From a virus: 64,000 nt of DNA. The stretch lies in UHGV virus genome UHGV-0211740. One strand, written 5' to 3'. Shown one piece after another: positions 9,850-28,283 of the stretch. Position numbers and translations under genes: made by a program. Below the pieces are notes generated by a model. That model saw only the letters and a program-made list of their open reading frames with translations, did not search any database and was not told the origin of the DNA. Position 1 is the stretch's first letter. Every line of letters starts with the position of its first letter.

Positions 9850-9867
9850 AGAACCCTCCCCACCAGT

Positions 9868-11622: not shown

Positions 11623-11859
11623 TTAGGTGAGGTCTCCATTCCTACTCTCCTTTTTCTCCTTACGGAGATTCTTGTAGTAGTCAACCAGGCACATTATCAC
11701 AATGAAGACAACAACAGGCCAAAAAGGTGCAGCAGTAATGATGGTGATAAAATCATCAAACTTCACCCTTCGTGTAGACACGACGCATATACCTGTCAAG
11801 ATTACTGCTGTTATAACGGCTATTACTAGGTAACCCATCAGTACAGCATCTATACTCAT
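11623..11859 (-). CDS. small two-TM membrane protein (holin-like topology)
   Basis: 78 aa; two hydrophobic helices followed by a charged C-terminal tail. Confidence 0.4.
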   Translation of the reverse strand: MSIDAVLMGYLVIAVITAVILTGICVVSTRRVKFDDFITIITAAPFWPVVVFIVIMCLVDYYKNLRKEKKESRNGDLT

Positions 11860-11889
11860 TGGATCCTCCTTTACAGGTTAAATTGTATA

Positions 11890-12423
11890 CTACAGATTGT
11901 TGCTGAGGGTGTCAAGAAAATTATCCCGTTCTTTCTCAGAGTTTTCATGGGTGTAGCTGAAAAACATATCGAGAATAACCTTATTGATATATTCCAGCTC
12001 CTCTGTATTCAGATACTTATCAGGATCTACAATGACTTCCCAAATATCGTACAGACCGCACTCATGATATCCCCAACGCCACTCAATTGTTAAACTGAGC
12101 GGCAAAGCTTTACCGTCACAAACAACCTTCCATCTACAGATGTTGGTATCTGGACGCACCTGTGCACGGTATACCTGTACAAAATCCAATTTGAATTTGA
12201 GGTACTCGTCATACAATTTAAGTACAAAGCTCTCGATTTGTGGAGACACTTTTGCAGCAAACTGTGCGTATTTGTACTTGCACTGGATGATCTTTCTGCG
12301 TTTTGCAGTTAAATTTTTTGCAGACAGTTGTTCTTCAGTGTACCTCCACCTACGGTCAACAAACGCAACAGGGTCTTTGTCCCCATAGAGGTCTTCCCAG
12401 TTAATCAGAAGCATACCTGTCAC
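11890..12423 (-). CDS. hypothetical protein
   Basis: 177-aa ORF. Confidence 0.45.
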   Translation of the reverse strand: MTGMLLINWEDLYGDKDPVAFVDRRWRYTEEQLSAKNLTAKRRKIIQCKYKYAQFAAKVSPQIESFVLKLYDEYLKFKLDFVQVYRAQVRPDTNICRWKVVCDGKALPLSLTIEWRWGYHECGLYDIWEVIVDPDKYLNTEELEYINKVILDMFFSYTHENSEKERDNFLDTLSNNL

Positions 12424-12683: not shown

Positions 12684-12692
12684 GATAAATTA

Positions 12693-13091: not shown

Positions 13092-13360
13092 AATTTAGGC
13101 TCCTTAAATGAATCTATGTAGTCAATTAAATCCCAAGCATCGCGATGGGCTGTCAGAGGATATACTTCTCCGAGAGGGATCATAGCGGCAAGTCTATCAA
13201 AAACCCAGTCTGGACGCAACATTTTATGGTGATATTCCCACTCACCTTCTACAGACTTTTTCTGAGTGATCAGGATCTCTGTGTAGTGTTTAGCCTGTCT
13301 TGAGTAGATTGAAAATGACTTGTACATAAATGGCCCCTCTTGTTGAAAACAAGAATACAT
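13088..13360 (-). CDS. hypothetical protein
   Basis: 90-aa ORF. Confidence 0.4.
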   Translation of the reverse strand: MYSCFQQEGPFMYKSFSIYSRQAKHYTEILITQKKSVEGEWEYHHKMLRPDWVFDRLAAMIPLGEVYPLTAHRDAWDLIDYIDSFKEPKL

Positions 13361-13362
13361 AA

Positions 13363-13677
13363 CTACCAGGTCACTGTCAAGTAGGCAACTGTGTTATTTT
13401 TCTCTGGCGATATGCCAACAACATCCACTTGCAGACCCCCTGCCCTTAAATCTCCGACGATGTGTGGGAAGTAATCAGAGAGATGTGATGGAAGATTTAT
13501 CGAAAATCCGCACCCCAGAAAGCCTGCTAACGCTTTATTTTGTATCTCCCCTACAATCGCATCGTAAATAGCGTTAAGCTCGTCAGGAAGCGTCACAGGG
13601 CGTTTTAGCGCTAACCGGTGTAATTTGTCCTTAGCACTCATTTTCATTTCAGATCTACCTCTGGTGGTGCCAACCAC
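13363..13677 (-). CDS. hypothetical protein
   Basis: 104-aa ORF. Confidence 0.4.
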   Translation of the reverse strand: MVGTTRGRSEMKMSAKDKLHRLALKRPVTLPDELNAIYDAIVGEIQNKALAGFLGCGFSINLPSHLSDYFPHIVGDLRAGGLQVDVVGISPEKNNTVAYLTVTW

Positions 13678-14177
13678 ATAAATGGCGGCAAATCTAAGCG
13701 GTTTTTCTTATCCCACACAAAATATGCATATGCTTGCCCGTCAGTTCTGCCATTGGACTGGAATGATGGGCGCTTAGATATTGTAATCACTGTGGTAGGG
13801 GCATTTTCAAGCCACCACTCAAAACGTGCTTTACTTTCCAGGAAGTTGAGACGCAAAAGCATAATAACTACGTCAGCATCTTTCAACGCCTTTTCTACAA
13901 ACTCACGGGCCAGGCTGTAGGGAGGGTTGGTTATAATGCAGTCAACATGGTTGTATTCTGTATTCAAGTAGTCCACACCTTCTTGAATCTCTCCCCATGC
14001 AGATCCTAACGGCATACGGGAGTAGAATACCCCGTTAACACTGTTTCGGCACGGCTCCAGATAAGTCCAGTTCTCCGGGAAATCAATTAAGTTATATAGG
14101 CCTTCTGCACACCAATCTGGTGTAACATATTCATCATAAGCATTACGTTGTTCGTCAGGTTTTCTAGCGCAAGTCAT
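13644..14177 (-). CDS. phage-type DNA N6-adenine methyltransferase (small Dam-like)
   Basis: 177 aa with catalytic motif IV ITNPPY; size and motif fit the small phage Dam family. Confidence 0.65.
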   Translation of the reverse strand: MTCARKPDEQRNAYDEYVTPDWCAEGLYNLIDFPENWTYLEPCRNSVNGVFYSRMPLGSAWGEIQEGVDYLNTEYNHVDCIITNPPYSLAREFVEKALKDADVVIMLLRLNFLESKARFEWWLENAPTTVITISKRPSFQSNGRTDGQAYAYFVWDKKNRLDLPPFMWLAPPEVDLK

Positions 14178-14228
14178 GCAAATCTCCAGATCATAAAAGC
14201 CCTCCGAAGAGGGCTTTAAGATTAATAT

Positions 14229-15275
14229 TTAAGCTTCTTCGACAATTCCTGCACCCAGGATTTTTTCATTAAGCTCTTTTGCGGTTTTAATAATATTATC
14301 CACCAGACGCTTACGGGTCTTGTCTTTCACCTGAACCTCTTCGCCACCGTTCAGAGTAGTCTTCAATTGAGACAGAATATCCTGAAGTTCAACGACAGAG
14401 AATCGCTGCAGATCTTCTGAGGTAATCTCGCCGAGAGCGATCCGGACGGTCTCACCACTTTCCATCTGCAGATTCAGGAACACGGTGTGAACATCATCTT
14501 TCACACCATTTGCTTTTGCAGACTCGACAGCATGAACCAGTTCGTCCAGGGAGGTGCACTGGTGAATCTCTGGCAGACCTGCTTCACCTAGTACCCCTTC
14601 ATCACCTTTTGCCAGAAGCTTTTTCGGTTTCTGCCCGTTCTGGATACGCTGAATGTTTTCATCGTCCAGAATGATAGCTCCAGTTCTAGATGCCAGCTCC
14701 TCTCCGTCCAACCATACTTCTCCACCAGCTGTGATGGAGGCGATCTCATCTTCTGTCAGCACTCCACCGTAGTATTTTTCGATCAGACGTTCGAAACGTT
14801 TTTTCCAGTAGCTGACCTGAGTATTCATGTTCACACCGTTGCCATAAGTGCCACCTTGGTAGTAGTGGAACATAAATTCAGTATCTGGAGCCACAGTGCG
14901 TTCTTTGCAACCTAGCCATAAGATTGTTCCAGCAGAGCAGCACATCCCTTCAGCATGTACAACAACGCTTGCCTGAGACTCGCGGAATGCCTGCAGATAT
15001 GCCATTGCAATGTGCACGCAACCACCAGGGCTATTGATGATCACCCGAATGCTTTCTTCCGGCTGAGCCATACGGATCGTCTGCAGACGAGACATATGGT
15101 CTTGTAGGTCTTCCAAGTCGTCGATATAAAGAACGTGGTCAACAACAGGTGTTGGGTAGCTGTATGTTTCCATAATACCACCCGGCATACCAAACATTTT
15201 ATTACTCATCGGTTCGAAGCCGTTCTGTTTTTCTTTCATGCCGTGTACCATGGTGCTGCGAGGTGTTAAATTCAT
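14229..15275 (-). CDS. ClpP-like serine protease with C-terminal helical extension (possible prohead protease-scaffold fusion)
   Basis: INSPGG and MCCSAGT serine motif plus MFHYY histidine region match the ClpP/S14 fold; about 150 aa helical C-terminal tail. Confidence 0.7.
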   Translation of the reverse strand: MNLTPRSTMVHGMKEKQNGFEPMSNKMFGMPGGIMETYSYPTPVVDHVLYIDDLEDLQDHMSRLQTIRMAQPEESIRVIINSPGGCVHIAMAYLQAFRESQASVVVHAEGMCCSAGTILWLGCKERTVAPDTEFMFHYYQGGTYGNGVNMNTQVSYWKKRFERLIEKYYGGVLTEDEIASITAGGEVWLDGEELASRTGAIILDDENIQRIQNGQKPKKLLAKGDEGVLGEAGLPEIHQCTSLDELVHAVESAKANGVKDDVHTVFLNLQMESGETVRIALGEITSEDLQRFSVVELQDILSQLKTTLNGGEEVQVKDKTRKRLVDNIIKTAKELNEKILGAGIVEEA

Positions 15276-15336
15276 GTGAGGTCCTTAATGTTGGAAAATT
15301 AAAAGCGATTTATTTAAACCTGATTCTCATTTGCCT

Positions 15337-15648
15337 TTATTTGGCAATTACCATGGAATACTTGCAATTGTCAGAAGCATCACAGGTCAACGATTGCCAG
15401 TCTACCACATACCACGTGTCATTGTCAACAATTACTTTATCACCTGTTCTGTAAAAGGTGTTGCTTTCAATAACACGAGACTCAGTGAAGAATCGGTGTC
15501 TTCGCTCACGTAGTAGAGCCAAGTTGATTATATTACCACCGCTGTCCTTAATCCACACATTCTTGTATCCTTTATTTGCCAAAATTGTCTCGCCGTTATA
15601 GACAAACAGGCAGTAGATTTTATTCAATCTCTCTTGTATCGTAGCCAT
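15337..15648 (-). CDS. hypothetical protein
   Basis: 103-aa ORF. Confidence 0.4.
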   Translation of the reverse strand: MATIQERLNKIYCLFVYNGETILANKGYKNVWIKDSGGNIINLALLRERRHRFFTESRVIESNTFYRTGDKVIVDNDTWYVVDWQSLTCDASDNCKYSMVIAK

Positions 15649-15749
15649 ACTGTTCTTCTCCTCGTTTTGTCAGGCAATAATACCTAAAGCTTGTCTGTTT
15701 GTCAACAAGTGTTTTAGATATTCAAGGGTGGAATAACCACCCTTATATG

Positions 15750-16538
15750 TTACTCGGAAACAGGAGTCCAAATACGGTTTGCACGGTCCTCAATAAGATT
15801 GAGTGCAATCTGACGACCCAGCCCAGAACGAACAACATCGTCAGGACTATCAAAGCTAATCATCCCAACTTCAGGATCTGGATGGCGTGTAAAGAAATCT
15901 GTCACCCATGCAAGGCCAGATTTACCAGGGATGTCTCGTTGGCTATTGTCCCCCATAATTACAAGGGTGGCCTGATCGGAGATCCTTGTGATAATTGACA
16001 ACATTTCTTCAGGGTTAGTTTGCTGTGCCTCGTCAATTAGGACAAAGCATCGTTCATCGAAACTACGACCACGAATACTTTCAACTTCACAAATCTCTAT
16101 ACGGCTGTTCTGACCGTCTCCCAGCATTGCTGCAAAAGCACCTTTGCCAACACGACGACAAATCGTGTCCATCATACTCCGGAGATAGGGCCACAGTTTC
16201 TGCATTGCATTCCCGGGTTTAAATCCTGAAGTCTTTCCTGTCTGAACGTAAGGGCGTGCAACAATGATCTTATCAATCTCGTTTTTACGTAACAGATCTC
16301 CTGCATAGGCAGATGCCATAAATGTCTTACCAGACCCAAACACACCGTTTACGATAATAATCTTACGTGACCCTAAATAATCAAGATACTTTTGCTGCTT
16401 CTTATTCATCGGTCGGAGAGCTGGAGCTGTGTGCTCTCGTTCTTCAGAAAATTTCTCAGCAGCCTTACGCAAACGATCAGATTTACGAGCCTCTCTGGCT
16501 TCATCACGCATGCGTTTTGTTTCTTTAGCTCGACCCAT
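15750..16538 (-). CDS. phoH: PhoH-like ATPase
   Basis: Walker A GVFGSGKT and LIDEAQ motifs; 262 aa. Confidence 0.8.
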   Translation of the reverse strand: MGRAKETKRMRDEAREARKSDRLRKAAEKFSEEREHTAPALRPMNKKQQKYLDYLGSRKIIIVNGVFGSGKTFMASAYAGDLLRKNEIDKIIVARPYVQTGKTSGFKPGNAMQKLWPYLRSMMDTICRRVGKGAFAAMLGDGQNSRIEICEVESIRGRSFDERCFVLIDEAQQTNPEEMLSIITRISDQATLVIMGDNSQRDIPGKSGLAWVTDFFTRHPDPEVGMISFDSPDDVVRSGLGRQIALNLIEDRANRIWTPVSE

Positions 16539-16576
16539 GGTGGGACTCCTTTCAGATTGAGATGTGTCTGGAACTT

Positions 16577-16927
16577 TTATTGCAACAGTTTTTCGATAGC
16601 CGCTTCCATGCTGCTTGCAACAGCCTGAACTCGGATATTCATCTCTTCTTGGTGGATCAGTTCCTTAAGCTCTTTAACGGTAAATTCTTTAGAGAAACCT
16701 TCCACCATAATATTGTGTAAGGCTTCTTGCGTGTCTACTTGCAAGAACTTTTCCAGTTTGTTGGCAGAGGCTTCTAAATCGGCCCGAATACGAGGGTCAT
16801 CTGTGCGATTCAGCATTAGGCGTAAGCCATCGAGATTAGTAGAGATAGCGTCAGCATGTTGAGTAACTAACCGTGGCAAAATGAGATCTACAAACTTATT
16901 AGCCAAATCAATACGTTCTTGTGTCAC
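16577..16927 (-). CDS. hypothetical protein
   Basis: 116-aa ORF. Confidence 0.4.
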   Translation of the reverse strand: MTQERIDLANKFVDLILPRLVTQHADAISTNLDGLRLMLNRTDDPRIRADLEASANKLEKFLQVDTQEALHNIMVEGFSKEFTVKELKELIHQEEMNIRVQAVASSMEAAIEKLLQ

Positions 16928-17068
16928 TGTTGTACCCCCTCTTCATCCTCATGATGTTTCTTTTCACGCTTGTGTTTTTTCTTAAGCTCAAGCGCAATCT
17001 CTTTTTTGTACGCCTTCTTCAAGGCCTTTTTAGCCATTTGGCACCTCCTCTGCTTTCATTTTACGATA

Positions 17069-17098
17069 ATTATATCTGTCTAAACAAAGCTTTGTCAA
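17069..17098 (-). promoter_or_regulatory. putative sigma70-like promoter (minus strand)
   Basis: Minus-strand TTGACA (plus-strand TGTCAA) and TATAAT-like element separated by about 18 bp, upstream of 16577..16927. Confidence 0.35.
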
Positions 17099-17101
17099 CA
17101 A

Positions 17102-17593
17102 TTAATCTACCTGAACCCATCCGCCTGCTACCTTTTTAAACATTCTTTGGTTATCACTGCCTCGGAACGGTTTCTTGGTTGGCAAATCTTTTATATACTT
17201 ACCATCAATGATGATATCAGCCAGTTTAAGAACATCACTAGAGATATGGTCAAATGTGAACCCAGTATACACAAGAATAGTTTTCTTGTCACCGAATTTT
17301 TCCTTAATTTTCTCCATCAGGCTAATAATACCTGGCTCATTATAGTATGCCAAGGGTTCTCCACCCAGCAGAGAGATACCGCACACAGACGGGTTGTCCA
17401 AATCTGACAAGATTTTTTGCAAGTCTTCCTCGGTGAACTCTCTTCCCTTATCTTTTGACCAAAATGCCTGATTAAAGCAACTAGGGCAAGCGTGTGGGCA
17501 CCCAGATACCCACAAGGCAGTTCTAATACCTGGCCCTTCGGTGTAAGATATTTCTGTGTATCCGGCAATGTTCATAGATACTCCGCACCACAT
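17102..17593 (-). CDS. nrdG: anaerobic ribonucleotide reductase activating protein (radical SAM)
   Basis: CPHACPSC radical-SAM cysteine cluster; located immediately downstream of nrdD. Confidence 0.8.
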   Translation of the reverse strand: MWCGVSMNIAGYTEISYTEGPGIRTALWVSGCPHACPSCFNQAFWSKDKGREFTEEDLQKILSDLDNPSVCGISLLGGEPLAYYNEPGIISLMEKIKEKFGDKKTILVYTGFTFDHISSDVLKLADIIIDGKYIKDLPTKKPFRGSDNQRMFKKVAGGWVQVD

Positions 17594-17751
17594 TCAGGGC
17601 AATACCAAATAAAATCATCCAGCGCCTTGCACCAACGAAGATTACAATGGCAACCGCACTTGCAAATTTTATAAATACCTGTAGACATATTGCACCTCCT
17701 AGTTTACTGTGTACCAACAATATGCCACATCCTTGTGGCTTTTGTCAAGTA

Positions 17752-19875
17752 TCAGCAACCACAACTTCCGTAGTGCTTAACTCGCTCGATAACTTCAGCT
17801 TGCTTGCCTTTATTGTAAGGACGTGAGTTAGGACTGGAAAGGTATCCAGACACACGTCGAATTACACTGATCGTTCCCTCTTCGTGGTTTCCACAGTCTG
17901 GGCATACAAAGCCTTTAGCTGTTGCACTGAACTCACCAGAGAAACCGCACTTTAGACATTTATCCACTGGTTGGTTAATACCAAAATACATAATGTGTTT
18001 ATACCCGAAGTCAACAAGAGCCTCTAAAGCATCCAGGTTGTTTTTCAGGTTAGGTGTCTCTATGTATCCAATGTTGCCGCCAGAGGAGATCATAGCAAAA
18101 CCTTCTTCATACTTCCACTTATCAAAAGGTGAACTATTGATCCATACTGGTTGGTGGAAACTGTTGGTGATATATTCATGCTCGTGCTTCAATACCTCAG
18201 GATATTCACGATCCAGACAGGTTGCAGCTTTGTAGCATAAGCTTTCAGAAGGAGTGCCGTACAAGCTGAATGCCAGACCACTTTCCTTCTTATATCGCTC
18301 ACAAGCATCTTTCATGTGCTGAAGGATTCCAAGAGCTAAAGCCTTGTCTCCCTCTCTACCCAAAATCTGACAGGTTTCATACACACCAATATATCCAATA
18401 CTGATGGAAGCGTACCCGTCATAGAAGAGTTTATCAATACTCTCTTCAGGATCCAAGCGAGCAAGAGCGCCTTCACACCACATGATGGGGTTCTGACCTG
18501 CCTTAGTGCCTTTCAGACGGTTAACCCTTACAAGGTGAGCTTCATATGCCAAATCCAGATATTCGTCTAGAACTGTAAAGAAATCAACACCTTCTGTTTT
18601 AGCTTTTGCTGCAATCATTGGCAGGTTGAGGCTAACAACACCCAAGTTGAATCTGCCGAGGTATTTCTCCTCACCTGTTTCTAAGTCATTATATTTGCTA
18701 AGAAAACTCCGGCAACCCATGCTCGTTACTTTGCCATCTGTAGAACCTGTCACCTTACGATTTAGCGGAACAGAAACAAAGTCAGGATAAATTCGCTCTG
18801 CAGAGCATTCCAGAGCTAATCGTTTCAAATCATAGTTCGGATCCTCAGGGTTCATGTTGACACCCTCTTCTAAGAAGAACAGCACTTTAGGGAACACAGG
18901 TGTGATCCGTTCTTCACCAAGACCCATTTTGTGGACTTTCAGGTAGTTTTTGGTAATCATTCTACCAAATACCGAGGTATCAAGTCCTAAACTTAATGTT
19001 ATGAACGGAGTTTGCCCGTTGACAGAAGTTAACGTGTTGATTTGATAAAGCAACGTCTGCATACTGTCAAACACGTCTTTATCAGTCATCTGCATTGCAA
19101 CGCCTTCAGCATCCGGCAACCAATGCTCCTGACAAAATTTAAGGTTCTTCTCATAGGTAGCTTCAGCATACTGTGCCAGATAATGATCAATATGGCTCAT
19201 AGTCTGACCGCCGTATTGAGCACTAGCCACTGCACTAGAGATTTGGCTAAGGATTGTTGTTGCAACCCCTATTGACTTAGGCTTGCTGACATGGGCGTTA
19301 CCAATGTTGAATCCGTTTTCCAGCATATCTGGATAATTTACCAAACAACAGTTTGTTAGAGGGCTGATCAGATAGTCAAGATCATGCACATGGATGAAGC
19401 CTTTATTGTGCTCTTCGGAGACACGGTCTGGCAGGATCTGTGTTGATGCAAGGTGTTTGCTAAGGATGCCTGCAAGCAGGTCACGATGAGTGTGTACATG
19501 ATTGGTAGGCTTATTTGCATTTTCTTTTGTAAATTCATCACAAGTGCGATCCAAGAAGCCACTAATATCTGCAAGCAGTTTTCCACCTGCCTCTCTGTTA
19601 TTATCTCTTGTCTGCCTATACTGGATGTATTCTCTGGCTGCACATTTTAAACCCATATCCATGAGAGCGTCTTCAACAAGGATATGGATATTTTTTACAG
19701 AGATTGTGCACTGATTGGCTGGTAGATTGTTAGCAACAACTTCATTAACCGCGCAGGCGATCCGGTAAGCTTCTTCTTCAGTATGTCCAGACTCAAGTAA
19801 GGCGGACTCTGCCGCCTTGATCACCTTAATTCCGTTATAGACCTCTTCTCTACCGTCCCGTTTTACAACTTTCAC
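17752..19875 (-). CDS. nrdD: anaerobic ribonucleoside-triphosphate reductase
   Basis: 707 aa; N-terminal ATP-cone (KVVKRDGREE), C-terminal glycyl radical motif RRVSGYL with preceding Cys-rich Zn ribbon. Confidence 0.9.
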   Translation of the reverse strand: MKVVKRDGREEVYNGIKVIKAAESALLESGHTEEEAYRIACAVNEVVANNLPANQCTISVKNIHILVEDALMDMGLKCAAREYIQYRQTRDNNREAGGKLLADISGFLDRTCDEFTKENANKPTNHVHTHRDLLAGILSKHLASTQILPDRVSEEHNKGFIHVHDLDYLISPLTNCCLVNYPDMLENGFNIGNAHVSKPKSIGVATTILSQISSAVASAQYGGQTMSHIDHYLAQYAEATYEKNLKFCQEHWLPDAEGVAMQMTDKDVFDSMQTLLYQINTLTSVNGQTPFITLSLGLDTSVFGRMITKNYLKVHKMGLGEERITPVFPKVLFFLEEGVNMNPEDPNYDLKRLALECSAERIYPDFVSVPLNRKVTGSTDGKVTSMGCRSFLSKYNDLETGEEKYLGRFNLGVVSLNLPMIAAKAKTEGVDFFTVLDEYLDLAYEAHLVRVNRLKGTKAGQNPIMWCEGALARLDPEESIDKLFYDGYASISIGYIGVYETCQILGREGDKALALGILQHMKDACERYKKESGLAFSLYGTPSESLCYKAATCLDREYPEVLKHEHEYITNSFHQPVWINSSPFDKWKYEEGFAMISSGGNIGYIETPNLKNNLDALEALVDFGYKHIMYFGINQPVDKCLKCGFSGEFSATAKGFVCPDCGNHEEGTISVIRRVSGYLSSPNSRPYNKGKQAEVIERVKHYGSCGC

Positions 19876-20150
19876 TTTTTCTCTCCAAAACCATTCTTAA
19901 CAAAAGAAATGAAATCGTCGGCACCGCCTATATGGATACTTTCAAGATTGCCTTCTAAGAAGATCTGCGGCAACGTTCTGGGTACGATTGGACTGCACTT
20001 CTCGATAAGTTCTTCTTTTGTGTATCCCTCGCCAAGTGTCTTATATACAAAAGGCAGACCTTTACTGACTGCAAATTCTTTTGCTCTTACACAATGTGGG
20101 CAGTTATCTTTACCGTAAATGATAAAGAAAAAAGATTTTTCACAGCTCAT
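19872..20150 (-). CDS. glutaredoxin/thioredoxin-like redoxin
   Basis: 92 aa with CPHC active site; placed between nrdB and nrdD. Confidence 0.65.
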   Translation of the reverse strand: MSCEKSFFFIIYGKDNCPHCVRAKEFAVSKGLPFVYKTLGEGYTKEELIEKCSPIVPRTLPQIFLEGNLESIHIGGADDFISFVKNGFGEKK

Positions 20151-20153
20151 ATA

Positions 20154-21242
20154 TTAAAACTCCCAAATTTCTTCTTCAGCGTCGTTAACAGTTGTGTTGA
20201 CTCGGTAGTCAGTGTTCGACATTTCTTGGTTCGCCGTCTGTTGCAATGAAGGTTTCATCCACACCTGCATAAACGGTAGCGGGTCCTTTGTTGGCGGCAC
20301 AAAGTCTTTGTCGATGTCGTAGTAATCATAAATCGGTGAGCAGTTATAGTCAACCCATTCTTTAAGCAACGGTGAGTTAAGACCTATAATCGCTCTTCCT
20401 TCGCTGAAAATATAGTCACTCCAACCGTACTCCTTGGTTCGTACTTCATCAAGAATCTCTTTCAACTCCCCTTTTATCTCAAGGAAGCTTTTCTCCCACA
20501 CTGGATCATTGAGCAGGATATCAATGATGGCAAAATCACCTTTTGAATGCAGCATTTCGTCAAGCATGATTTTTTGAACAAGCTGCGCCACCTGAACAAA
20601 AATACCCTGTTCAGCTACTGCGAAAGTGCATGCAAAACTTGCAATAAACTCAATACTCTCCAGAGCTAAAAGTGCAAAAAGTGCTCTAAGAATGCATTTC
20701 CGTACAATATCTTCTTCAACACTGGAAGGATCCAGTCGGTATTTTGCACCAATAACCTCAAGCTCTTGCATATATTTGACAATAACCCCAGATCTGCTCA
20801 GCACGTTCTGGTTTTCCTGAATTTCTTCTATGATCTCGCGAGCATTAGGTAGGCACTGTCTAACAATCTCTGAGTAAGTAAGTGCGTGAAGAACTTCAAT
20901 CTCCGACTGCTTCATCAACAGAGCGAAAAGCTCACTATTAGTGATGAATGGTGAAAAGAGGCAGATGATTGATCTTGCCGCAACGCTATCAGCCTCCCAT
21001 TGCCACATCAAGGTCTGCACCATCACGTCATAAGTTGACTTTGAGCATGTTACAAAATCTGAAATAGATTGCGACAAATCCACTTCATCCTCTGCCCAAT
21101 CCTGTTCTTTTTGTTTTTTATACAGTTCAAACAGTTGTGGGTATTTTTTATTGATAGAGTCATACATCCCCATTTGCTGTCCTAGAAACAGCGGATAGTC
21201 ACCAGTTTTATGAGCGGTGTTCTCAGCATTAAATACAGCCAT
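20154..21242 (-). CDS. nrdB: ribonucleotide reductase class Ia beta subunit
   Basis: 362 aa; position downstream of nrdA, di-iron ferritin-like pattern. Confidence 0.85.
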   Translation of the reverse strand: MAVFNAENTAHKTGDYPLFLGQQMGMYDSINKKYPQLFELYKKQKEQDWAEDEVDLSQSISDFVTCSKSTYDVMVQTLMWQWEADSVAARSIICLFSPFITNSELFALLMKQSEIEVLHALTYSEIVRQCLPNAREIIEEIQENQNVLSRSGVIVKYMQELEVIGAKYRLDPSSVEEDIVRKCILRALFALLALESIEFIASFACTFAVAEQGIFVQVAQLVQKIMLDEMLHSKGDFAIIDILLNDPVWEKSFLEIKGELKEILDEVRTKEYGWSDYIFSEGRAIIGLNSPLLKEWVDYNCSPIYDYYDIDKDFVPPTKDPLPFMQVWMKPSLQQTANQEMSNTDYRVNTTVNDAEEEIWEF

Positions 21243-21281
21243 TAGTCTACCTCTAAAATGGGGCCGAAGCCCCTTTTAAAA

Positions 21282-23597
21282 TTACAGTGCACAACTTTCG
21301 CAATACGGATCTTCAACTGAACTATCTGCGATCAAAGGATAGTTCTTTCTGGTTTCATCTTCAGCATGTTTCTTGGCATGAAGTTCCTCTGCCAAGGAGT
21401 CACCAGCACCAACCCTAGAGTTTAAATAATACCATGTCTTCATCCCGAATTTAGTGGCACGGATAAGGTACCCTAGTTGCTCCTTCATTGAAATTTTACC
21501 ATCTTTCAACTTGGTGTAATCTATGTACAAATCCGCGCTGATTGCCTGACCTGTGAATTTTTGAATCACGGCATACATATCGATCATGTCGTTGGTATCA
21601 ACGTCCCAAGCCGAAGTGTAATACTCTTTCAACTCATCGTATTCAGGAACGATAAACAGCACCTGCCCTTGTGGCGACTTTTTAAAGATAATGTGCTCAC
21701 GGACAGGATAAACCCCGTTAGTGGTGTTTGTTGCCAGCGAAGAGCTTTCATTAGGCATATATGCTTCAAGAACGCTATTACGTATCCCACCATTTTCAAT
21801 GATTTGTTTACGTAACCCTTCCCAATCCTGTTTAAGAGAAGGATCTTTCACCACACTATCGACCTCTTTGTTATAGGTGTCGATTGGTAACCAACCTTCC
21901 GGGTATTTTGTTTTATGCATCCATTCGCAGACACCACGCTCTTTTGCCAATCGTAAACTTGCTTTGTGCAAGCTGTAGCTGTGAAGCTCTGCAAGATCAT
22001 GGACAAGCTGTTTACTTTCAGGAGATCCGTAAGTAACCTTGTGGCTGGCAATAAAATGTGCAACATTGGTAAGGCCAACCCCGATAGATCTGCGTTTTTT
22101 AACAGTGCTCTCCATATTTTCATACGGATATGTCATGATTTCCATAACATTGTCAATCATAAGCACCGTGTAGTATGCAACGTCCTCATACTCCTCTGTG
22201 GTAACCCTCCCAGCTACAAGAGATGATAGGAAGCACAATGCAACCTCACCATCATCAGCATCATACTTGAAGATATTACGCATATCTGAATAGCCTTTTG
22301 TCGGAAGGGCTATCTCTGCACACAGGTTGCTTGAATAGATTACATCTTTAAAAGGTGTATGTCTATTCATCTCATCTGTCCAGTATACGTACAGTCTTCC
22401 TACCTCAGTGCGCTGCGTGATAAGTTCAGCAGCAAGATCTCTAGCACGGATCCATGTTTTAGGAATACTGTCATCTTTAGCGATCCGATCAACCTCTGCA
22501 TCAAACTCTTCCATAGACATGGTGAAGATGCCTTCATGTAGCTGAGGTGCGTGCTTATAAGAAACAAGCATCCAATCTAAATTTTTAGCCACACGGTTGA
22601 TAAACGACCTATTAATACCTATGGAATAATCCATAGTGTTGATTCTTTTTGAAGCAACAGTCATAGGGTTTCTCAAACGGATTAGCTCATCAATCTGAGG
22701 ATCCAGTGCAAGGAATGACACTGTTGCCGAACCACCACGGGATTGTTGTCTATTCTCCTTAACCCCAGCATCAATACCACGATAATATGGGAGCTTGCCC
22801 ATATGCTTAATCGTGTTACCACGAACACCATCACCTGCAGATCTTGACGATAAATAGTAGCCAATGCCTGCTTGGTTAACCGTCATTGTGTACGCAACTT
22901 CACGTGCTACACCAATTGACTTTGCTGTATCGTCAGCTTTTATTACGCAACAAGATGCATACCCTGTCTTGCCTGTGCGTAGACCGTTTAAGTACGGTGT
23001 TGGGGCATTGATCTTTAAGTCTGACAGATAAGTGTATAATTTTACAACATCGTTAATACGGCGTTCTTTAGGCATATTCTTCATGACAGCCATTGCTATC
23101 CCCATAAACATCATCTGGGGAGATTCAAACAGGGTGTCTTTAAGAGTATCCTTGATCCCGTATTTGTCACGAAACTGTTTAAGGACTGCATAGCCATAAC
23201 CGAGATCTTTACTGTGATCAATAACAGTGTTTAAAGTATTTAACTCAGTAAAGCTATAACCCATATCCTCCCAATACCCTTTCTCAACCATGGTATTGTA
23301 GAATGAGGGTAAGGAAGGGATCTTTGTAAACCCTCCAAAAGCCTCTTTATAGATCTGACCAATAAGAACACGACCAGCCATACGGGAATGTGCTTCGTCT
23401 TTACGGCTAACACATGAATCTATAATAGCCTGGTTAACTTCTTTGGTTGTGCATCCATCATACAGACGTTTGTATGCATCCATTGCAATATGTGACCAAT
23501 TGCCGTTACCGTCGTCACCGAAAATAGCTGCCTTATTTAAACGTTCTGGATCGAATTCAACTTCACATCCGTTACTTTTAATTACTTTGGTGATCAA
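21282..23597 (-). CDS. nrdA: ribonucleotide reductase class Ia alpha subunit
   Basis: 771 aa; N-terminal ATP-cone, C-terminal CESC redox tail. Confidence 0.9.
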   Translation of the reverse strand: MITKVIKSNGCEVEFDPERLNKAAIFGDDGNGNWSHIAMDAYKRLYDGCTTKEVNQAIIDSCVSRKDEAHSRMAGRVLIGQIYKEAFGGFTKIPSLPSFYNTMVEKGYWEDMGYSFTELNTLNTVIDHSKDLGYGYAVLKQFRDKYGIKDTLKDTLFESPQMMFMGIAMAVMKNMPKERRINDVVKLYTYLSDLKINAPTPYLNGLRTGKTGYASCCVIKADDTAKSIGVAREVAYTMTVNQAGIGYYLSSRSAGDGVRGNTIKHMGKLPYYRGIDAGVKENRQQSRGGSATVSFLALDPQIDELIRLRNPMTVASKRINTMDYSIGINRSFINRVAKNLDWMLVSYKHAPQLHEGIFTMSMEEFDAEVDRIAKDDSIPKTWIRARDLAAELITQRTEVGRLYVYWTDEMNRHTPFKDVIYSSNLCAEIALPTKGYSDMRNIFKYDADDGEVALCFLSSLVAGRVTTEEYEDVAYYTVLMIDNVMEIMTYPYENMESTVKKRRSIGVGLTNVAHFIASHKVTYGSPESKQLVHDLAELHSYSLHKASLRLAKERGVCEWMHKTKYPEGWLPIDTYNKEVDSVVKDPSLKQDWEGLRKQIIENGGIRNSVLEAYMPNESSSLATNTTNGVYPVREHIIFKKSPQGQVLFIVPEYDELKEYYTSAWDVDTNDMIDMYAVIQKFTGQAISADLYIDYTKLKDGKISMKEQLGYLIRATKFGMKTWYYLNSRVGAGDSLAEELHAKKHAEDETRKNYPLIADSSVEDPYCESCAL

Positions 23598-23902
23598 TTT
23601 GCTTCCTCCACTTCATCAACGTATTTATCAAGGCAGGTATCAGTATCTTGCTGAGTAAAGGTATCCTCTTCTACAGAGATATTTATAATTTTACCTGTAT
23701 ACTCGTCATAATAAACATCATCATACATTTTAATATCGTTTGTCAGGCCGTTGAACCAAAGCCACCCAACATACTCTGTCCGACTTGCAAAACCAAGATC
23801 CTTCCACTTGGAATTATGACTCATCTTCACCACCTTAGCTTTCAATACCGAATAATTTTTCCAGGCGATGCAGATCTTCAAAATTGAAAGGTTCATCAAC
23901 AA
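23594..23902 (-). CDS. hypothetical protein
   Basis: 102-aa ORF. Confidence 0.4.
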   Translation of the reverse strand: MLMNLSILKICIAWKNYSVLKAKVVKMSHNSKWKDLGFASRTEYVGWLWFNGLTNDIKMYDDVYYDEYTGKIINISVEEDTFTQQDTDTCLDKYVDEVEEAN

Positions 23903-24296
23903 TATGAATATCTTCAGCCTTTTCAGATTGTTTTGTATACTTTCTTACATTAACACGATCCTCTACAGGGATATCGTATGGAAGATCTTGAACAAGCAGT
24001 GCCTCATCTGGCGTTTTATCCACATCTAAAATATCTACACCATTGTACATTTGTGGGTATCTAAAGTCAGCACGCATGACACCCGCAAATACATCTGCCT
24101 TTCGGTAATGGGTAGGCTTATTTTTGCATCTAACGTTTTTTCCACGAAGAACATCAATATTTTTTAAATCAAACCCCACAGCAAACAGTGCAGCTCGGAG
24201 ACCGTTTCGTGTACGAACGTTAAACCCAGGAACGGTAGATAGGAAATCTAAAGTAACTGAAATAAATGTCTTTTTAGGAATCATAACATCACTCAT
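23835..24296 (-). CDS. hypothetical protein
   Basis: 153-aa ORF. Confidence 0.4.
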   Translation of the reverse strand: MSDVMIPKKTFISVTLDFLSTVPGFNVRTRNGLRAALFAVGFDLKNIDVLRGKNVRCKNKPTHYRKADVFAGVMRADFRYPQMYNGVDILDVDKTPDEALLVQDLPYDIPVEDRVNVRKYTKQSEKAEDIHIVDEPFNFEDLHRLEKLFGIES

Positions 24297-24393
24297 ATCT
24301 GTCTCCTTTCTGGCTCACCAACAAAGTGAGCCATTATTATAGATCATCTGATACTGTTAGTCAACACAAAAGTTACCTATCGCTGTGATAGGA

Positions 24394-25377
24394 TTATCCT
24401 TTCATGAAGTGATTATTAAGAAGCTGTCGGTGCTGAACCCACCCACAAAAGTTGGCAGACCAGAATTTACCATCACGGTCTTGATGGGTCACACCTTCCT
24501 GCCAGACACAGCTGTCTTGTGTGATTTCACATGAAGACAGATAGTAGTTTAAACGTTCCATCACATTGTCGTGATCCATAGGAGTCGCCTGGTGCTCGTA
24601 AGGGCTTGCATGAATACGATCCCCACCAATCAATTTTTTAGCCACATTGTCTGCCTTTTCAAACGTGCTGTCAATATTGCGATAAGATACTTGTGCACAA
24701 CAGCTCGCGCTAATAGACAGAGCTTCTTCAGTATTGAGAACGCAGAGCTTTCCTTCTGCATCCCGTACAGCATAGTTAAACTCACCGTCCAAATAAATGT
24801 GCTCTACATATGGGGTGTGCCATTGACCAGGTTTAAGGATTTCAGGAGTACTATTAGCCATAGCCTCCCACATACAATTAGCCAACATCTGAATCGTAGG
24901 ATCCGCATCGTGCCAGCAACGGAGGTGGAAAAAATTATTCCACTCGGTGCTTGTTACAACTGTTTTCATGCGCTGAAACGGCTCTACTAAGCGGTTACAC
25001 ACCTGCTTATGGTATCCAGCAAGAGCAAACTTCTCAGCATGCCAGGCTGCATTTTTGGCAGCTTCTTTCCAGAACTCTTCAGGAGAGAACTCAAGATCAG
25101 TGTACTCGACACGGATCTTCTGATCGTGATCGCCACCATCCTCCATGCCTCGCTGGTTTACACCAAAACGAACTGGCATTGCAGGATTTTCCACAACCTG
25201 CTGCAGCATTTTGCTAACAGGTACTGCACGAGAGGACATTGCATTTCTGCTGAAAACTCGGTGTGTCATGAGTTCAGAGTGAATGATTCGAGGATACTCT
25301 AGCTCAAAAGTGGTGATACGCTTACCTTTCTCGGAAATGCTGTCAGCAATAATCTTTGCAGTGCACAGTTTTAGCAT
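24394..25377 (-). CDS. thyX: flavin-dependent thymidylate synthase-like protein (ThyX family)
   Basis: Segment THRVFSRNAMSSR matches the ThyX signature RHRx7-8S pattern in position and spacing. Confidence 0.6.
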   Translation of the reverse strand: MLKLCTAKIIADSISEKGKRITTFELEYPRIIHSELMTHRVFSRNAMSSRAVPVSKMLQQVVENPAMPVRFGVNQRGMEDGGDHDQKIRVEYTDLEFSPEEFWKEAAKNAAWHAEKFALAGYHKQVCNRLVEPFQRMKTVVTSTEWNNFFHLRCWHDADPTIQMLANCMWEAMANSTPEILKPGQWHTPYVEHIYLDGEFNYAVRDAEGKLCVLNTEEALSISASCCAQVSYRNIDSTFEKADNVAKKLIGGDRIHASPYEHQATPMDHDNVMERLNYYLSSCEITQDSCVWQEGVTHQDRDGKFWSANFCGWVQHRQLLNNHFMKG

Positions 25378-25577
25378 TATTTAGCTCTCCTTGTTTTAAT
25401 TTTGGAAATTTCGTCTGGGTTTATGTTGGCCTTAAATGCAAGGTACCTGTTAAACATATCAGAGCACATATCCTGGGTGATCCTGGAAGCATACACCAGC
25501 TTTCCATCCAGATTATATACCTCTAGCCAGTCTCCGTATCGGACTACAGGATCTCCCCCTTTAGAACATCTGCCCAT
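25377..25577 (-). CDS. hypothetical protein
   Basis: 66-aa ORF. Confidence 0.35.
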   Translation of the reverse strand: MGRCSKGGDPVVRYGDWLEVYNLDGKLVYASRITQDMCSDMFNRYLAFKANINPDEISKIKTRRAK

Positions 25578-25578
25578 T

Positions 25579-26172
25579 TCAAATACCTTCTAAAAACTTT
25601 CCTATTTTATACCAGCTATGAGTGGTATAGTCAACACTAACCTTTAACTCCTCGAATTGCTCATAAGGTGTGTCTTTTAAGATTTTAATAACTTCTGGTC
25701 GTGAAGCAAACTGGTTCAGGTACTCATGCCTGTCATCAATTATGACATCTACAGCCACATTCCCTTTGAAATGTGTGGCATAGAAGCCGTGTCCCTGAGA
25801 ATGATCGTCCAGATCCATAAAGTCGCTGGTCCAACGCTTTAAGAACCTTGATTTAGAAGCTAGGTGACCTTTCTTGCACACCGAGATAAATGCAAGCTTG
25901 TGACCACGGCCCACCAAGTCTTTCATAACCTCAATAGCACCCTCCTCAGGCTTAAGAAAGTCGTAAAGGAACGGGTCACTCCAGAAATCAAAAGGACCTA
26001 TGATGTTTTCTTTGGGACGGTCAGGCCAATACTTTGACAGATCGTAATACATCGTTCCGTTAGAAGGTTTATCTATTGTCTTGTTAGCTGGGCCATATAA
26101 ACGCTCTAGCCACTCCCACCATGCTGTTCCTGAGTCTACCAGTGTCAAATCTACATCAATTCCGATCAGCAT
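25579..26172 (-). CDS. HAD-superfamily phosphatase, probable 5-prime deoxyribonucleotidase
   Basis: N-terminal GIDVDLTLVD carries the HAD DxDxT motif. Confidence 0.5.
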   Translation of the reverse strand: MLIGIDVDLTLVDSGTAWWEWLERLYGPANKTIDKPSNGTMYYDLSKYWPDRPKENIIGPFDFWSDPFLYDFLKPEEGAIEVMKDLVGRGHKLAFISVCKKGHLASKSRFLKRWTSDFMDLDDHSQGHGFYATHFKGNVAVDVIIDDRHEYLNQFASRPEVIKILKDTPYEQFEELKVSVDYTTHSWYKIGKFLEGI

Positions 26173-26177
26173 TGCTC

Positions 26178-26780
26178 TCAGCCCTCTTTAGCATCAATAT
26201 ACTTGCACACAATCTCAGATGCACACTCCCAAGGTGCTCCCTCAGGGTTAACGACATCAAACTCGATACCTTTTATCCCGTTCTTCTCTAGGCTAAGGTA
26301 AGTTCTGGAATCATTTCCCCAATCATATCCTGCACGGTGTATACGGAACAATAGCAGATCTCCACCTGTGCGGTATGCGTACTCGCTAAGGCATGCCAGC
26401 TCCTCTTTGAAGCCACCATCAGAGTAAACAACAACCCCTTTACCTTCTGGGAAATCTTTCTCCAGAGAAGCAACACTGGCCTTTCCGAAAGCGTCGCTAC
26501 CGAATACAGGTTTAATAAGGGACTCGCTACAATGGATCATCCACTCGCGAGGAGAAACGTGCTTTCCATCGATCATCAAGAACGGGCACGGCTCTTCTTT
26601 GTAGCGGCGATCATAAAATGCATTCCACAACTGTGGTGAAATACCTGCTGCCTTAATTGCCACGCTGAATAGCATTTCCTTTACCTCGCGGTGATGCGAG
26701 TTTGGAATAGCTTCCAACAAAAGATCTGCGATATGGTCTTTTCCAGAGCTTGGTGGTGCATTAAGAACAATAATATCCAT
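26178..26780 (-). CDS. P-loop nucleotide kinase, probable dNMP kinase
   Basis: NAPPSSGKD P-loop resembles the T4 gp1 dNMP kinase motif. Confidence 0.45.
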   Translation of the reverse strand: MDIIVLNAPPSSGKDHIADLLLEAIPNSHHREVKEMLFSVAIKAAGISPQLWNAFYDRRYKEEPCPFLMIDGKHVSPREWMIHCSESLIKPVFGSDAFGKASVASLEKDFPEGKGVVVYSDGGFKEELACLSEYAYRTGGDLLLFRIHRAGYDWGNDSRTYLSLEKNGIKGIEFDVVNPEGAPWECASEIVCKYIDAKEG

Positions 26781-26983
26781 TAAAAACCTCCGTGATATTC
26801 TCCAACTGCATCAATAATACTTTTACACTTATCTACCAACTCGTTAGCTACTACAGCATCGTCCTCCCAAACAGCCTCCTCGATTTGATCAAGCAGTGAT
26901 CGCATCTTCTGCATCATTTCTGGGATAAAGTCTTCTGAAAAGCTATCTGGAATTATTAACTCTGGTGTCATTGCGGTCTCCAA
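26780..26983 (-). CDS. hypothetical protein
   Basis: 67-aa acidic ORF. Confidence 0.35.
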   Translation of the reverse strand: METAMTPELIIPDSFSEDFIPEMMQKMRSLLDQIEEAVWEDDAVVANELVDKCKSIIDAVGEYHGGF

Positions 26984-26998
26984 TCATACTGTGCGTTA

Positions 26999-27457
26999 TT
27001 AGAAGTTTGTTTTTACACGTCCCTTTTCATCGACTTCGTTGTTAGCTAGGAGCGTTACAAAGTCTGTAAAACGAACATGAAGAACTCTTTTCTTACCCAG
27101 GTACCCTAAAGCCACCCCTGAGAAATTTAGCATCAAAGGGGCTAAAGAAGCTCTGGCACTGAAATGCTGTTGTTCCACCCTTCCAACACCTTTAGTATAG
27201 GATGGGTTGAGATTATAAGTTCTGAATCCAAGTTTTGTTGGAGCTTTAGAGTTAAAAACAACTTTATAGCGTTTCTTACTCAGTTTATGCTCCAGGATAA
27301 GCATCCCCTTATCACCTTTGATAAGTTGAAAATCTGTAAAGTGCTCTTTTAAGACGAAAGGTAGTGCCAGCCCCATGGCCTGCCCCCTTTGAACCGCAGT
27401 CTCACCAAAAGCTTTTGCGTCAGTAAGTTCTTTAGTTAAGTCTATACTTTTGATCAT
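26999..27457 (-). CDS. hypothetical protein
   Basis: 152-aa ORF. Confidence 0.4.
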   Translation of the reverse strand: MIKSIDLTKELTDAKAFGETAVQRGQAMGLALPFVLKEHFTDFQLIKGDKGMLILEHKLSKKRYKVVFNSKAPTKLGFRTYNLNPSYTKGVGRVEQQHFSARASLAPLMLNFSGVALGYLGKKRVLHVRFTDFVTLLANNEVDEKGRVKTNF

Positions 27458-28268
27458 ACTGGGCCTCCAGAATGTATTGTAGTTCTTTCTTACCTATACT
27501 CTTCATTCCTGCGGTCTTACCCGCTTCTTCTTGAAAAGAAGAATAGCACTCGATAAACACTCTGTCAACACCATCAACCAAAGATTTTATGAAATATGTT
27601 GATTCTTTAGATTTTGGGTCATCCTCACCTAATACTTTTCCGGCATTATACCCAACACGCCTCACACAGAAGTCGTAGTCATCTGGTGTACTAAAAGAAA
27701 ATAGCTTATTCTCTCCAATCTCTACAGGACTTCTATTGCAGTCCTTTTTCTCCCAGATCTGGAAAACGCATGGCACGTCATAAGGTTTGCCACTGAGTAA
27801 AAAAGAATTCTTGGGGCACCTTTCGCTGTAAACAAGGTGCATCGACATATCCAGCTTGTTTGCAAAAAATATTTTTTCAAATGTTCGTGGTAAGATGAAG
27901 GCTATAGCCCCACCAAGCTCCAATAACGACGCACAGTGGTTAAAGAACTTGCAAGCTAAAGATGAATTCTTGCCAAATGGAGGGTTACCTATGAATACAT
28001 CTGCCTTGGGATACACCTCCAAAAAGTTTGCCTGAATGCACGGTGTTGGGCCTTCAAATTCAGGATCTGGGACCAAATCGTACGACAATATCTCTGAGAA
28101 CAGTTTTGAAAAAGAACCCTTTCCAGCAGAAGGCTCAACGTATGCACAATTTCCATACTTACCTTTTACTTTGCCAACAAGATATTTGGCATACTCGGGA
28201 TCTGTGTAATATTTGTCGTTGGACTCTTTCTTGCTCAAAGTGCCTCCAAAAAGGAAAGGGAGGCGCAA
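27432..28268 (-). CDS. DNA methyltransferase (NPPF motif, probably N6-adenine)
   Basis: Motif I-like EPSAGKGSF and motif IV FIGNPPFGK. Confidence 0.65.
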   Translation of the reverse strand: MRLPFLFGGTLSKKESNDKYYTDPEYAKYLVGKVKGKYGNCAYVEPSAGKGSFSKLFSEILSYDLVPDPEFEGPTPCIQANFLEVYPKADVFIGNPPFGKNSSLACKFFNHCASLLELGGAIAFILPRTFEKIFFANKLDMSMHLVYSERCPKNSFLLSGKPYDVPCVFQIWEKKDCNRSPVEIGENKLFSFSTPDDYDFCVRRVGYNAGKVLGEDDPKSKESTYFIKSLVDGVDRVFIECYSSFQEEAGKTAGMKSIGKKELQYILEAQYDQKYRLN

Positions 28269-28283
28269 GCCTCCCTCTAAGTG

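Follow-up and report, generated by a model that had tools for sequence, protein, structure and literature searches.

Two orphan N6-adenine DNA methyltransferases in a Vequintavirus: a probable GATC enzyme and a candidate GTAC enzyme

Two stand-alone methyltransferase genes in an rV5-like phage

The virus genome UHGV-0211740, of which a stretch of 64,000 nucleotides (the window) was analysed, is that of a Vequintavirus (rV5-like), an E. coli phage, and carries two genes, ORF A and ORF B, for predicted N6-adenine DNA methyltransferases. We consider it likely (probability about 0.6) that both are orphan enzymes acting on DNA, ORF A at GATC and ORF B at GTAC, with anti-restriction as the likely benefit and retron triggering and toxicity as the known cost. 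Phages commonly carry orphan methyltransferases, and as such the two genes are ordinary and largely known already; both are present in about 120 relatives (more than 100), in most of which the label is "putative N6-adenine methyltransferase". The features discussed below are:

13644..14177, minus strand: ORF A, 177-aa minimal N6-adenine DNA methyltransferase (NPPY, PHROG 799, ortholog of bas51_0176)
14195..14217, minus strand: terminator-like hairpin in the gap between the ClpP-like gene and ORF A (-15.7 kcal/mol, z -3.2)
27432..28238, minus strand: ORF B, predicted 268-aa gamma-class N6-adenine DNA methyltransferase (revised start; NPPF)
28255..28278, minus strand: terminator-like hairpin in the gap between the DnaQ-like exonuclease gene and ORF B (-19.8 kcal/mol, z -3.2)

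A preliminary description of this DNA had reported two orphan DNA methyltransferases, with NPPY (13644..14177) and NPPF (27432..28268) motifs and no adjacent restriction endonuclease. Both ORFs are present on the minus strand with these motifs, and no other ORF of 100 aa or more in the window has the pattern [NDS]PP[YFW]. The count of two holds for the window, but not for the phage type, which has four methyltransferases; the genes for the other two, an adenine enzyme resembling Type III Mod and a C5-cytosine enzyme, lie outside the window. The two are not recent paralogs, as BLASTP gave E=0.19 and the cross-profile matches were weak.

ORF A and ORF B lie among replication, recombination and nucleotide-metabolism genes, with a ClpP-like protease, a dNMP kinase, a DnaQ-like exonuclease, endonuclease VII and small proteins of no assigned function as neighbours. 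No restriction enzyme was found among these neighbours. A profile of the nuclease-like partner that accompanies bacterial relatives of ORF B (see below) had no match in a six-frame translation of the window or of the whole genome of the related phage Bas51, and its hhalign comparison with the downstream gene gave a probability of 0.1%. The neighbour identities and the empty profile search bear out the claimed lack of an adjacent restriction endonuclease, and neither locus has the adjacent cognate endonuclease that defines a complete Type II restriction-modification system. Orphan DNA methyltransferases are thus a fitting term for both, for ORF A by experiment on a 95%-identical ortholog and for ORF B by well-supported inference.

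ORF A is a minimal enzyme distinct from the Dam family

The catalytic motif of ORF A, in the context ...DCIITNPPYSLA..., is part of a gamma-class motif order (YxTP, EPC, D69, NPPY), with motif X at Y17-x-TP, a motif I remnant at E41-P42, D69, D79 and T83-NPPY87. N84, P85 and P86 are invariant, and D69 and T83 are at least 90% conserved. The protein matches PHROG 799 ("DNA methyltransferase") over residues 1-172 with E=2.5e-66, while every Pfam and NCBIfam match was below its cut-off, and neither ORF A nor ORF B had a meaningful sequence match among PDB chains. The structural model (pLDDT 88) has the Rossmann fold of N6-adenine methyltransferases, and Foldseek matched it to M.BseCI, CamA and HsdM, and also to KsgA/DIMT1. 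There is no recognition domain. With 177 residues, ORF A would be among the smallest sequence-specific DNA methyltransferases.

ORF A had been described as Dam-like, which is apt for its target, GATC, but not for its family: there was no match to the alpha-class Dam family (PF02086) at E<=1, and Dam structures were absent from the top 50 Foldseek matches. Alpha-class Dam enzymes such as those of E. coli and T4 have the G(m6A)TC product and orphan status in common with ORF A, but ORF A belongs to another family, has a gamma-like motif order and has no separate DNA-binding domain. The small phage Dam proteins of PF05869/TIGR01712 resemble it in size (~165-170 aa), phage origin and an aligned NPPY region, and a 48%-identical homolog has a precomputed PF05869 match. 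ORF A itself scored 20.0 bits against PF05869 (cut-off 28.1) and 18.4 bits against TIGR01712 (cut-off 97.05), both below threshold; PHROG 799 fits better, and these proteins are at best a distant sister group. Membership in the non-specific Hia5/Hin1523/Nma1821 type was rejected, as those enzymes are beta-class with DPPY before FxGxG.

The hairpin at 14195..14217, AAAGCCCUC-UUCG-GAGGGCUUUU, is followed by a GATC site, a GGAG sequence and the ATG of ORF A.

The GATC mark is written by the ortholog of ORF A

In Bas51 (Escherichia phage WalterGehring), bas51_0176 is 95% identical to ORF A across all 177 residues without gaps. None of the nine substitutions lies at a mutated or invariant position, D69, D79 and T83 are common to both, and the neighbours also correspond, with a ClpP-like protease upstream and a "glycosidase" ~1.2 kb downstream. 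The large Bas51 enzyme has Q, A and I where ORF A has D69, D79 and T83.

According to a 2025 paper, bas51_0176 writes the m6A of GATC sites in phage DNA, its expression alone is toxic to E. coli, and it triggers the retrons Asa1 and Squ1; variants D69G, D79G and T83P abolished retron triggering, and nanopore sequencing showed the loss of GATC m6A in T83P (PMC12548924). Methylation profiling, which the preliminary description had proposed as a check, is thus already published for the ortholog of ORF A, in wild type and mutant (PMC12548924). The Figure 4f source data list 1405 m6A calls at GATC, 509 at GTAC and 576 at other positions for the wild type, and 35, 511 and 349, respectively, for T83P (PMC12548924). 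Some 230 calls outside GATC depend on the small enzyme.

The Bas51 genome has 703 GATC sites (1406 adenines) and 258 GTAC sites (516 adenines). Comparing these counts with the m6A calls, both motifs are ~99% methylated. With 35 of 1406 GATC adenines still called in T83P, the input of host Dam is nearly nil, and GATC methylation of the virion DNA is essentially all the work of the phage enzyme. The GTAC mark, with 509 calls in the wild type and 511 in T83P, is independent of the ORF A ortholog. By its identity with bas51_0176, for which the activity has been shown, ORF A is a predicted G(m6A)TC writer. That published source data and site counts together show near-complete methylation of both motifs and a nearly irrelevant host Dam is modestly useful. 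The sensing by retrons and the toxicity of the small enzyme are the one demonstrated biological consequence of either gene, and had been missed in the preliminary description.

ORF B is a predicted gamma-class enzyme with a revised start

The ORF and motif at 27432..28268 were confirmed, but the start is more likely at 28238. The TTG at 28268 lies within the loop of the hairpin at 28255..28278 (stem of 9-10 bp with six GC pairs, followed by a U-run), while another TTG in the same frame, at 28238, lies 4 nt behind a GGAGG Shine-Dalgarno sequence and gives the 268-aa length annotated in relatives. Hence, we use 27432..28238.

ORF B matches PHROG 5172 with E=2.1e-125. Its catalytic motif, in the context ...DVFIGNPPFGKN..., completes a gamma-class motif order (YYTxP, EPSAGxGSF, D54, GNPPFG), and the C-terminal part has the conserved motifs RRVG..AGK and NTAG..S.SK.EL. 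The model is confident (pLDDT 92.8), and Foldseek gave a probability of 1.0 to 2okc, CamA, M.BseCI and M.TaqI, with HsdM also matched. These gamma-class enzymes, including Type I HsdM, have the catalytic fold and the X-I-II-IV order with NPPF as in ORF B, and the core of ORF A matches them as well; identities are 12-21%. They differ in the recognition region, which comprises ~90 aa in ORF B compared with domains of ~170-300 aa in M.TaqI and CamA. This C-terminal region is confidently modelled and had no counterpart among solved domains (TM over the query ~0.45). Some ORF B homologs have a precomputed Pfam domain, PF26055; searched against a Pfam set that does not contain PF26055, they gave no matches.

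ORF B as the candidate writer of GTAC

GTAC is the second fully methylated motif of the phage type, and the leading candidate for its GT(m6A)C writer is ORF B, whose ortholog in Bas51 is bas51_0200. This product would be the same as that of M.HpyAXII, M.CviQI and M.PabI. By its published description, M.HpyAXII from H. pylori resembles ORF B in being gamma-class and in the position of motif IV, having an N-terminal catalytic domain with motif IV near residue 87 (PMC2588503). It differs in its length of 331 aa and in its partner, a "half-pipe" enzyme of the PabI family; the partner of the ORF B homologs is another protein, without a PabI match.

It is also conceivable, though unlikely, that ORF B actively methylates adenine in DNA at another target and that GTAC is methylated by the ortholog of bas51_0070, the Type III Mod-like enzyme. 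The target of ORF B would then be hidden among the "other" m6A calls, or its activity in the laboratory would be poor. Bas51 has three annotated adenine methyltransferases, and T83P retains 349 m6A calls outside GATC and GTAC, both of which leave room for such an assignment. In the literature searched on RsaI, KpnI, MboI and DpnI digests or methylomes of rV5 and Vequintavirus, no direct assignment of GTAC was found; the relative CB7 has a ClaI pattern in line with Dam methylation. However, bas51_0070 is beta-class, and its closest solved relatives are Type III Mod subunits. Such subunits usually mark one strand of asymmetric sites of 5-6 bp, which would fit the "other" class of calls, although, with a 4-bp palindrome, methylation of each strand by a Type III Mod-like enzyme is conceivable. 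Members of the ORF B family, in contrast, have a small nuclease-like gene beside them, an arrangement like that of Type II systems, for which short palindromes are typical. ORF B therefore remains our preferred candidate, one that is specific and cheaply testable.

Anti-restriction and other roles of the methylation

We propose that ORF A and ORF B would be expressed from the early/middle nucleotide-metabolism arm of the phage and would act as SAM-dependent stand-alone enzymes, methylating the replicating genome to near completion, ORF A to G(m6A)TC and ORF B to GT(m6A)C. The expected benefit would be immunity to enzymes cutting unmethylated GATC (DpnII/MboI type) and GTAC-containing sites (RsaI, KpnI, PabI type), and the known cost lies in the toxicity of the GATC enzyme and its detection by retron abortive-infection systems. 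Toxicity and retron triggering are experimental results; the rest of this balance of benefit and cost we infer.

GTAC is depleted in the phage, with an observed/expected ratio of 0.52-0.59 compared with 0.90 in E. coli, while GATC is not. This phage-specific depletion suggests a restriction pressure directed at GTAC. Its persistence despite full methylation is unexpected if methylation alone protected sufficiently. The BASEL study tested restriction-modification systems against Vequintavirinae and found these phages "exceptionally susceptible" (PMC8594841), hence a protective benefit would be narrow at most. Self-protection, as had been suggested for the two enzymes, is plausible against GATC- and GTAC-specific enzymes only. 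Roles in the regulation of gene expression and in packaging, suggested alongside it, have no support from the sequence, in which the sites are not clustered: no P1-pac-like grouping of GATC or GTAC exceeded the chance expectation in the window or in Bas51, and a nominal GTAC cluster at 11841..12340 (P ~0.01, uncorrected) was not reproduced in Bas51.

A main role of the methylation in phage DNA metabolism instead of anti-restriction, for example in blocking MutH nicks at unmethylated GATC during recombination-dependent replication, in timing expression or as a packaging mark, appears improbable to us. The location of both genes among replication, recombination and nucleotide-metabolism genes would agree with it, as would the inactivity of host Dam on the phage DNA, which would otherwise leave unmethylated GATC abundant. 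The titres of the methyltransferase point mutants, ~2-3-fold below wild type on a host without retrons (Figure 4c source data, PMC12548924), point the same way. Yet these mutants are viable and form good plaques (PMC12548924), clusters as in P1 pac or Dam-regulated promoters are absent, and the GTAC depletion speaks for restriction pressure.

Bacterial relatives of ORF B and a nuclease-like partner

At 19 of 80 bacterial loci, the ORF B homolog is followed on the same strand, with a median gap of 16 nt, by a conserved gene of 210-230 aa, and this tight operon recurs in unrelated bacteria. In Poseidonibacter ostreae, for example, the pair occupies positions 5001-5795 and 5805-6404 of the locus, and the partner has 199 aa. 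The partner has PD-(D/E)xK-like invariant residues (E15, D47, S-I-K57, KIDSKxQRRLQCS), from which nuclease activity may be predicted. Searches with the single sequence and with the profile gave no matches in Pfam, NCBIfam or the PDB, so that an assignment to PabI/HpyAXII-type enzymes or another named family was rejected, and all 615 partner homologs are labelled "hypothetical". The 80 loci included none from Helicobacter or Campylobacter upsaliensis. GTAC observed/expected ratios were 0.80 for bacteria with the methyltransferase-nuclease pair and 0.88 for those with a solitary methyltransferase, and no palindrome stood out, so the comparison does not point to a recognition site.

The combined evidence on fold, motifs and gene pairing supports DNA as the predicted target of ORF B. 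NPPF/NPPY motifs also occur in N6-adenine and N2-guanine methyltransferases of rRNA and tRNA and in HemK, but an RNA or protein methyltransferase is very improbable: the weak sub-threshold matches to PF05175 (rRNA methyltransferase small domain) and Erm, the label "predicted RNA methylase" given to homologs by some sources, and the presence of Trm5 and putative RNA methyltransferases further down the Foldseek ranking are set against best structural matches to DNA adenine methyltransferases, an X-I-IV order with YYTxP and EPSAGxGSF as in M.TaqI, a recurrent operon with a PD-(D/E)xK-like gene as is typical of restriction-modification, and a DNA m6A motif in the phage type that has no assigned enzyme.

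ORF B, as a DNA methyltransferase, seems to correspond to the methylase of a Type II-like restriction-modification pair of bacteria, carried without the nuclease. More tentatively, and at somewhat less than even odds, its family may represent a widespread, uncharacterised Type II restriction-modification system, composed of a ~260-aa methyltransferase and a ~215-aa PD-(D/E)xK-like nuclease directed at GTAC, of which the phage has captured the antidote. If this is true, hundreds of bacterial gene pairs now labelled "hypothetical" would gain a specificity. The partners of the ORF B relatives may be a new family of restriction enzymes.

Two orphan methyltransferase genes in an rV5-like phage

The preliminary description had placed two methyltransferase genes in the window, and both reading frames are present on the minus strand with the motifs claimed for them.

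13644..14177, minus strand: ORF A, 177 aa, ...DCIITNPPYS...
27432..28268 as first given, minus strand: ORF B, ...DVFIGNPPFG...
14217..14195, minus strand: hairpin before ORF A, -15.7 kcal/mol, z -3.2
28278..28255, minus strand: terminator-like hairpin before ORF B, -19.8 kcal/mol, z -3.2
11890..12423, minus strand: ortholog of the Bas51 'putative glycosidase', ~1.2 kb downstream of ORF A

Among window ORFs of at least 100 aa, ORF A and ORF B are the sole carriers of an [NDS]PP[YFW] motif. Their Pfam and NCBIfam matches are all under cut-off; ORF A matches PHROG 799 'DNA methyltransferase' (E=2.5e-66), ORF B matches PHROG 5172 'unknown function' (E=2.1e-125), and in many relatives both genes already bear the label 'putative (DNA) N6-adenine methyltransferase'. 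The start of ORF B requires revision: TTG 28268 lies in the loop of the terminator-like hairpin, beyond the stop codon with which the upstream DnaQ-like exonuclease gene ends, and the in-frame TTG 28238, with GGAGG 4 nt upstream and a 268 aa product as annotated in relatives, fits better. The designation as orphans is correct, as the genes flanking the two ORFs (ClpP-like protease, small unknowns, dNMP kinase, DnaQ-like exonuclease, endonuclease VII) include no restriction endonuclease.

The window belongs to an rV5-like Escherichia myovirus of the genus Vequintavirus, with 99% identity to OX460980, a record without annotation, and about 91-93% identity to ~120 sequenced relatives. In Escherichia phage WalterGehring (Bas51, MZ501111) it maps to ~94,950 to 140,659 and then to 1 to 19,128, crossing the arbitrary end/start point of this linear record at window position 44886/44887; a tRNA cluster (Bas51 annotation) lies on one side of the junction, spanin and terminase genes on the other. 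Three Bas51 genes are annotated as N6 adenine methyltransferase; besides the counterparts of ORF A and ORF B, this phage type has two methyltransferases beyond the window, the third adenine enzyme among them.

L008:14456-15781 (Bas51 genome piece): Type III Mod-like beta-class adenine enzyme, bas51_0070
L008:17042-17806: annotated Dcm-like C5-cytosine enzyme, matching no Pfam or NCBIfam model

As the complement of this phage type includes these two, speaking of two orphan methyltransferases understates the genome's set.

ORF A and GATC methylation

Bas51 mutants escaping two retrons were all mutated in 'an N6 adenine methyltransferase', and the re-engineered mutants D69G, D79G and T83P abolished defence (Nakamura et al., PLoS Biol 2025; PMC12548924). 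In the same study, nanopore 6mA calling on wild-type phage DNA picked up a GATC motif, almost gone in T83P, and expression of the methyltransferase in E. coli was toxic. Aligned with ORF A, the Bas51 protein bas51_0176 shows 95% identity and zero gaps, and D69, D79 and T83 are found in both, whereas bas51_0200, the ORF B ortholog, has Q, A and I at these positions. This correspondence makes ORF A orthologous to an enzyme shown to write G(m6A)TC, and ORF A is effectively CHARACTERISED. In the alignment of its family (53 members), D69 and T83 are conserved at at least 90% and N84-P85-P86 is invariant.

The term 'Dam-like' holds for the target, GATC, and not for the family. The alpha-class Dam family gave no match to ORF A, whose AlphaFold model (pLDDT 88) consists of a Rossmann core alone, without a separate recognition domain, and comes closest to KsgA/DIMT1 and gamma-class DNA methyltransferases; only the target site is common to both.

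For the Bas51 ortholog, the demonstrated consequence of the activity is harmful to the phage, as it triggers retron abortive infection. In retron escapers a premature stop, R87*, in the 'putative glycosidase' turned up alongside methyltransferase mutations; by itself, this stop relieved the defence by Retron-Asa1 (PMC12548924). Directly before each methyltransferase gene stands a stable GC-rich hairpin with a tetraloop and a trailing U-run, terminator-like and with z about -3.2 in both cases. With these hairpins, both genes may be expressed at a low level by read-through, which would be in line with the GATC enzyme being toxic.

A second mark, GTAC, and its writer

The methods of PMC12548924 mention GTAC, and its Figure 4f source data hold m6A calls of 1405 (GATC), 509 (GTAC) and 576 (other) for the wild type and of 35, 511 and 349 for T83P. 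The Bas51 genome, assembled here for site counts, contains 703 GATC sites (1406 adenines) and 258 GTAC sites (516 adenines), hence about 99% of the adenines in each motif carry the mark, on both strands. GTAC methylation does not depend on the ORF A ortholog, with 509 calls in the wild type and 511 in T83P. With 35 of the 1406 GATC adenines still methylated in T83P, host Dam would add almost nothing, assuming a dam+ propagation host. E. coli K-12 is not known to have a GTAC methyltransferase, so this mark must come from an enzyme of the phage. Calls beyond the two motifs dropped from 576 to 349 upon inactivation of the ORF A ortholog (PMC12548924 data), and therefore ~230 of them depend on it, which hints at a relaxed specificity in keeping with the toxicity. 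The Type III Mod-like enzyme possibly accounts, through a motif of its own, for the remaining 349.

Two candidates for the GTAC writer are bas51_0200 and, beyond the window, bas51_0070. That ORF B writes GTAC is the best-supported reading, with a probability of roughly 0.6, based on a Type II-like pairing of its homologs, its gamma-class DNA methyltransferase fold and the better fit of bas51_0070 to the other calls. A bacterial scan for ORF B homologs, with one genome per species, returned 80 loci, 19 of which carry a conserved 210-230 aa gene downstream of the homolog, on the same strand at a median of 16 nt.

L010:5805-6404 (bacterial locus): partner gene
L034:4788-5444 (bacterial locus): partner gene
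17 further loci: partner genes

The paired loci come from unrelated lineages (Poseidonibacter, Paracoccaceae, Sphingomonadales, Verrucomicrobiae, Gammaproteobacteria). The partner alignment has invariant E15, D47 and S55-I-K57, a PD-(D/E)xK-like pattern, and a KIDSKxQRRLQCS motif; no relatives were found in Pfam, NCBIfam or the PDB, and all 615 homologs are labelled 'hypothetical'. The arrangement is that of a Type II restriction-modification pair, which argues that the ORF B family acts on DNA, probably on a short palindrome. The putative partner family may constitute an uncharacterised restriction endonuclease family; its gene is absent from the phage.

The ORF B family is compact (about 260 aa, 782 matches) and conserved end to end, including the C-terminal motifs RRVG..AGK and NTAG..S.SK.EL. 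The confident model (pLDDT 92.8, pTM 0.88) best matches the gamma-class DNA adenine methyltransferases Type I HsdM, CamA, M.BseCI and M.TaqI, each with probability 1.0, while the structural search found no solved counterpart for the C-terminal third. That bas51_0070, likewise an adenine enzyme, writes GTAC instead would be the less likely reading. It is a beta-class PF01555 enzyme, and the solved structures nearest to it are those of Type III Mod subunits (6k0w, EcoP15I Mod). As a rule, such subunits methylate a single strand of asymmetric 5-6 bp sites, a habit that suits the residual class of calls better than a fully methylated palindrome.

Role of the methylation

The self-protective, anti-restriction role first proposed is plausible but narrow. 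GATC shows no depletion, with O/E values of 1.03 (window) and 0.98 (Bas51). Among the 4-bp palindromes only one is more strongly depleted than GTAC, whose O/E is 0.52 for the window and 0.59 for Bas51 against 0.90 for E. coli K-12 (50-kb sample); this phage-specific depletion suggests that GTAC-directed restriction of the RsaI, KpnI or PabI type acted upon the phage lineage. In Bas51, GTAC avoidance coexists with the nearly complete methylation of this site. RsaI is blocked by m6A (PMC2588503). In the BASEL study, Vequintavirinae proved 'exceptionally susceptible' to restriction-modification systems (PMC8594841), which speaks neither for nor against protection at GATC or GTAC.

For the suggested regulation of gene expression and packaging, the sequence offers no support: the largest GATC clusters are within random placement (P >= 0.84 in every test, window and Bas51), and the window's one nominal GTAC cluster (7 sites within 500 bp, inside the glycosidase ortholog) did not recur in Bas51.

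The observation of two orphan methyltransferases is confirmed with minor corrections, and support for its first interpretation is partial. As a finding it is ordinary and for the most part known already; what value remains comes from an explicit test of which enzyme writes GTAC and from an unnamed nuclease-like partner family of bacteria.
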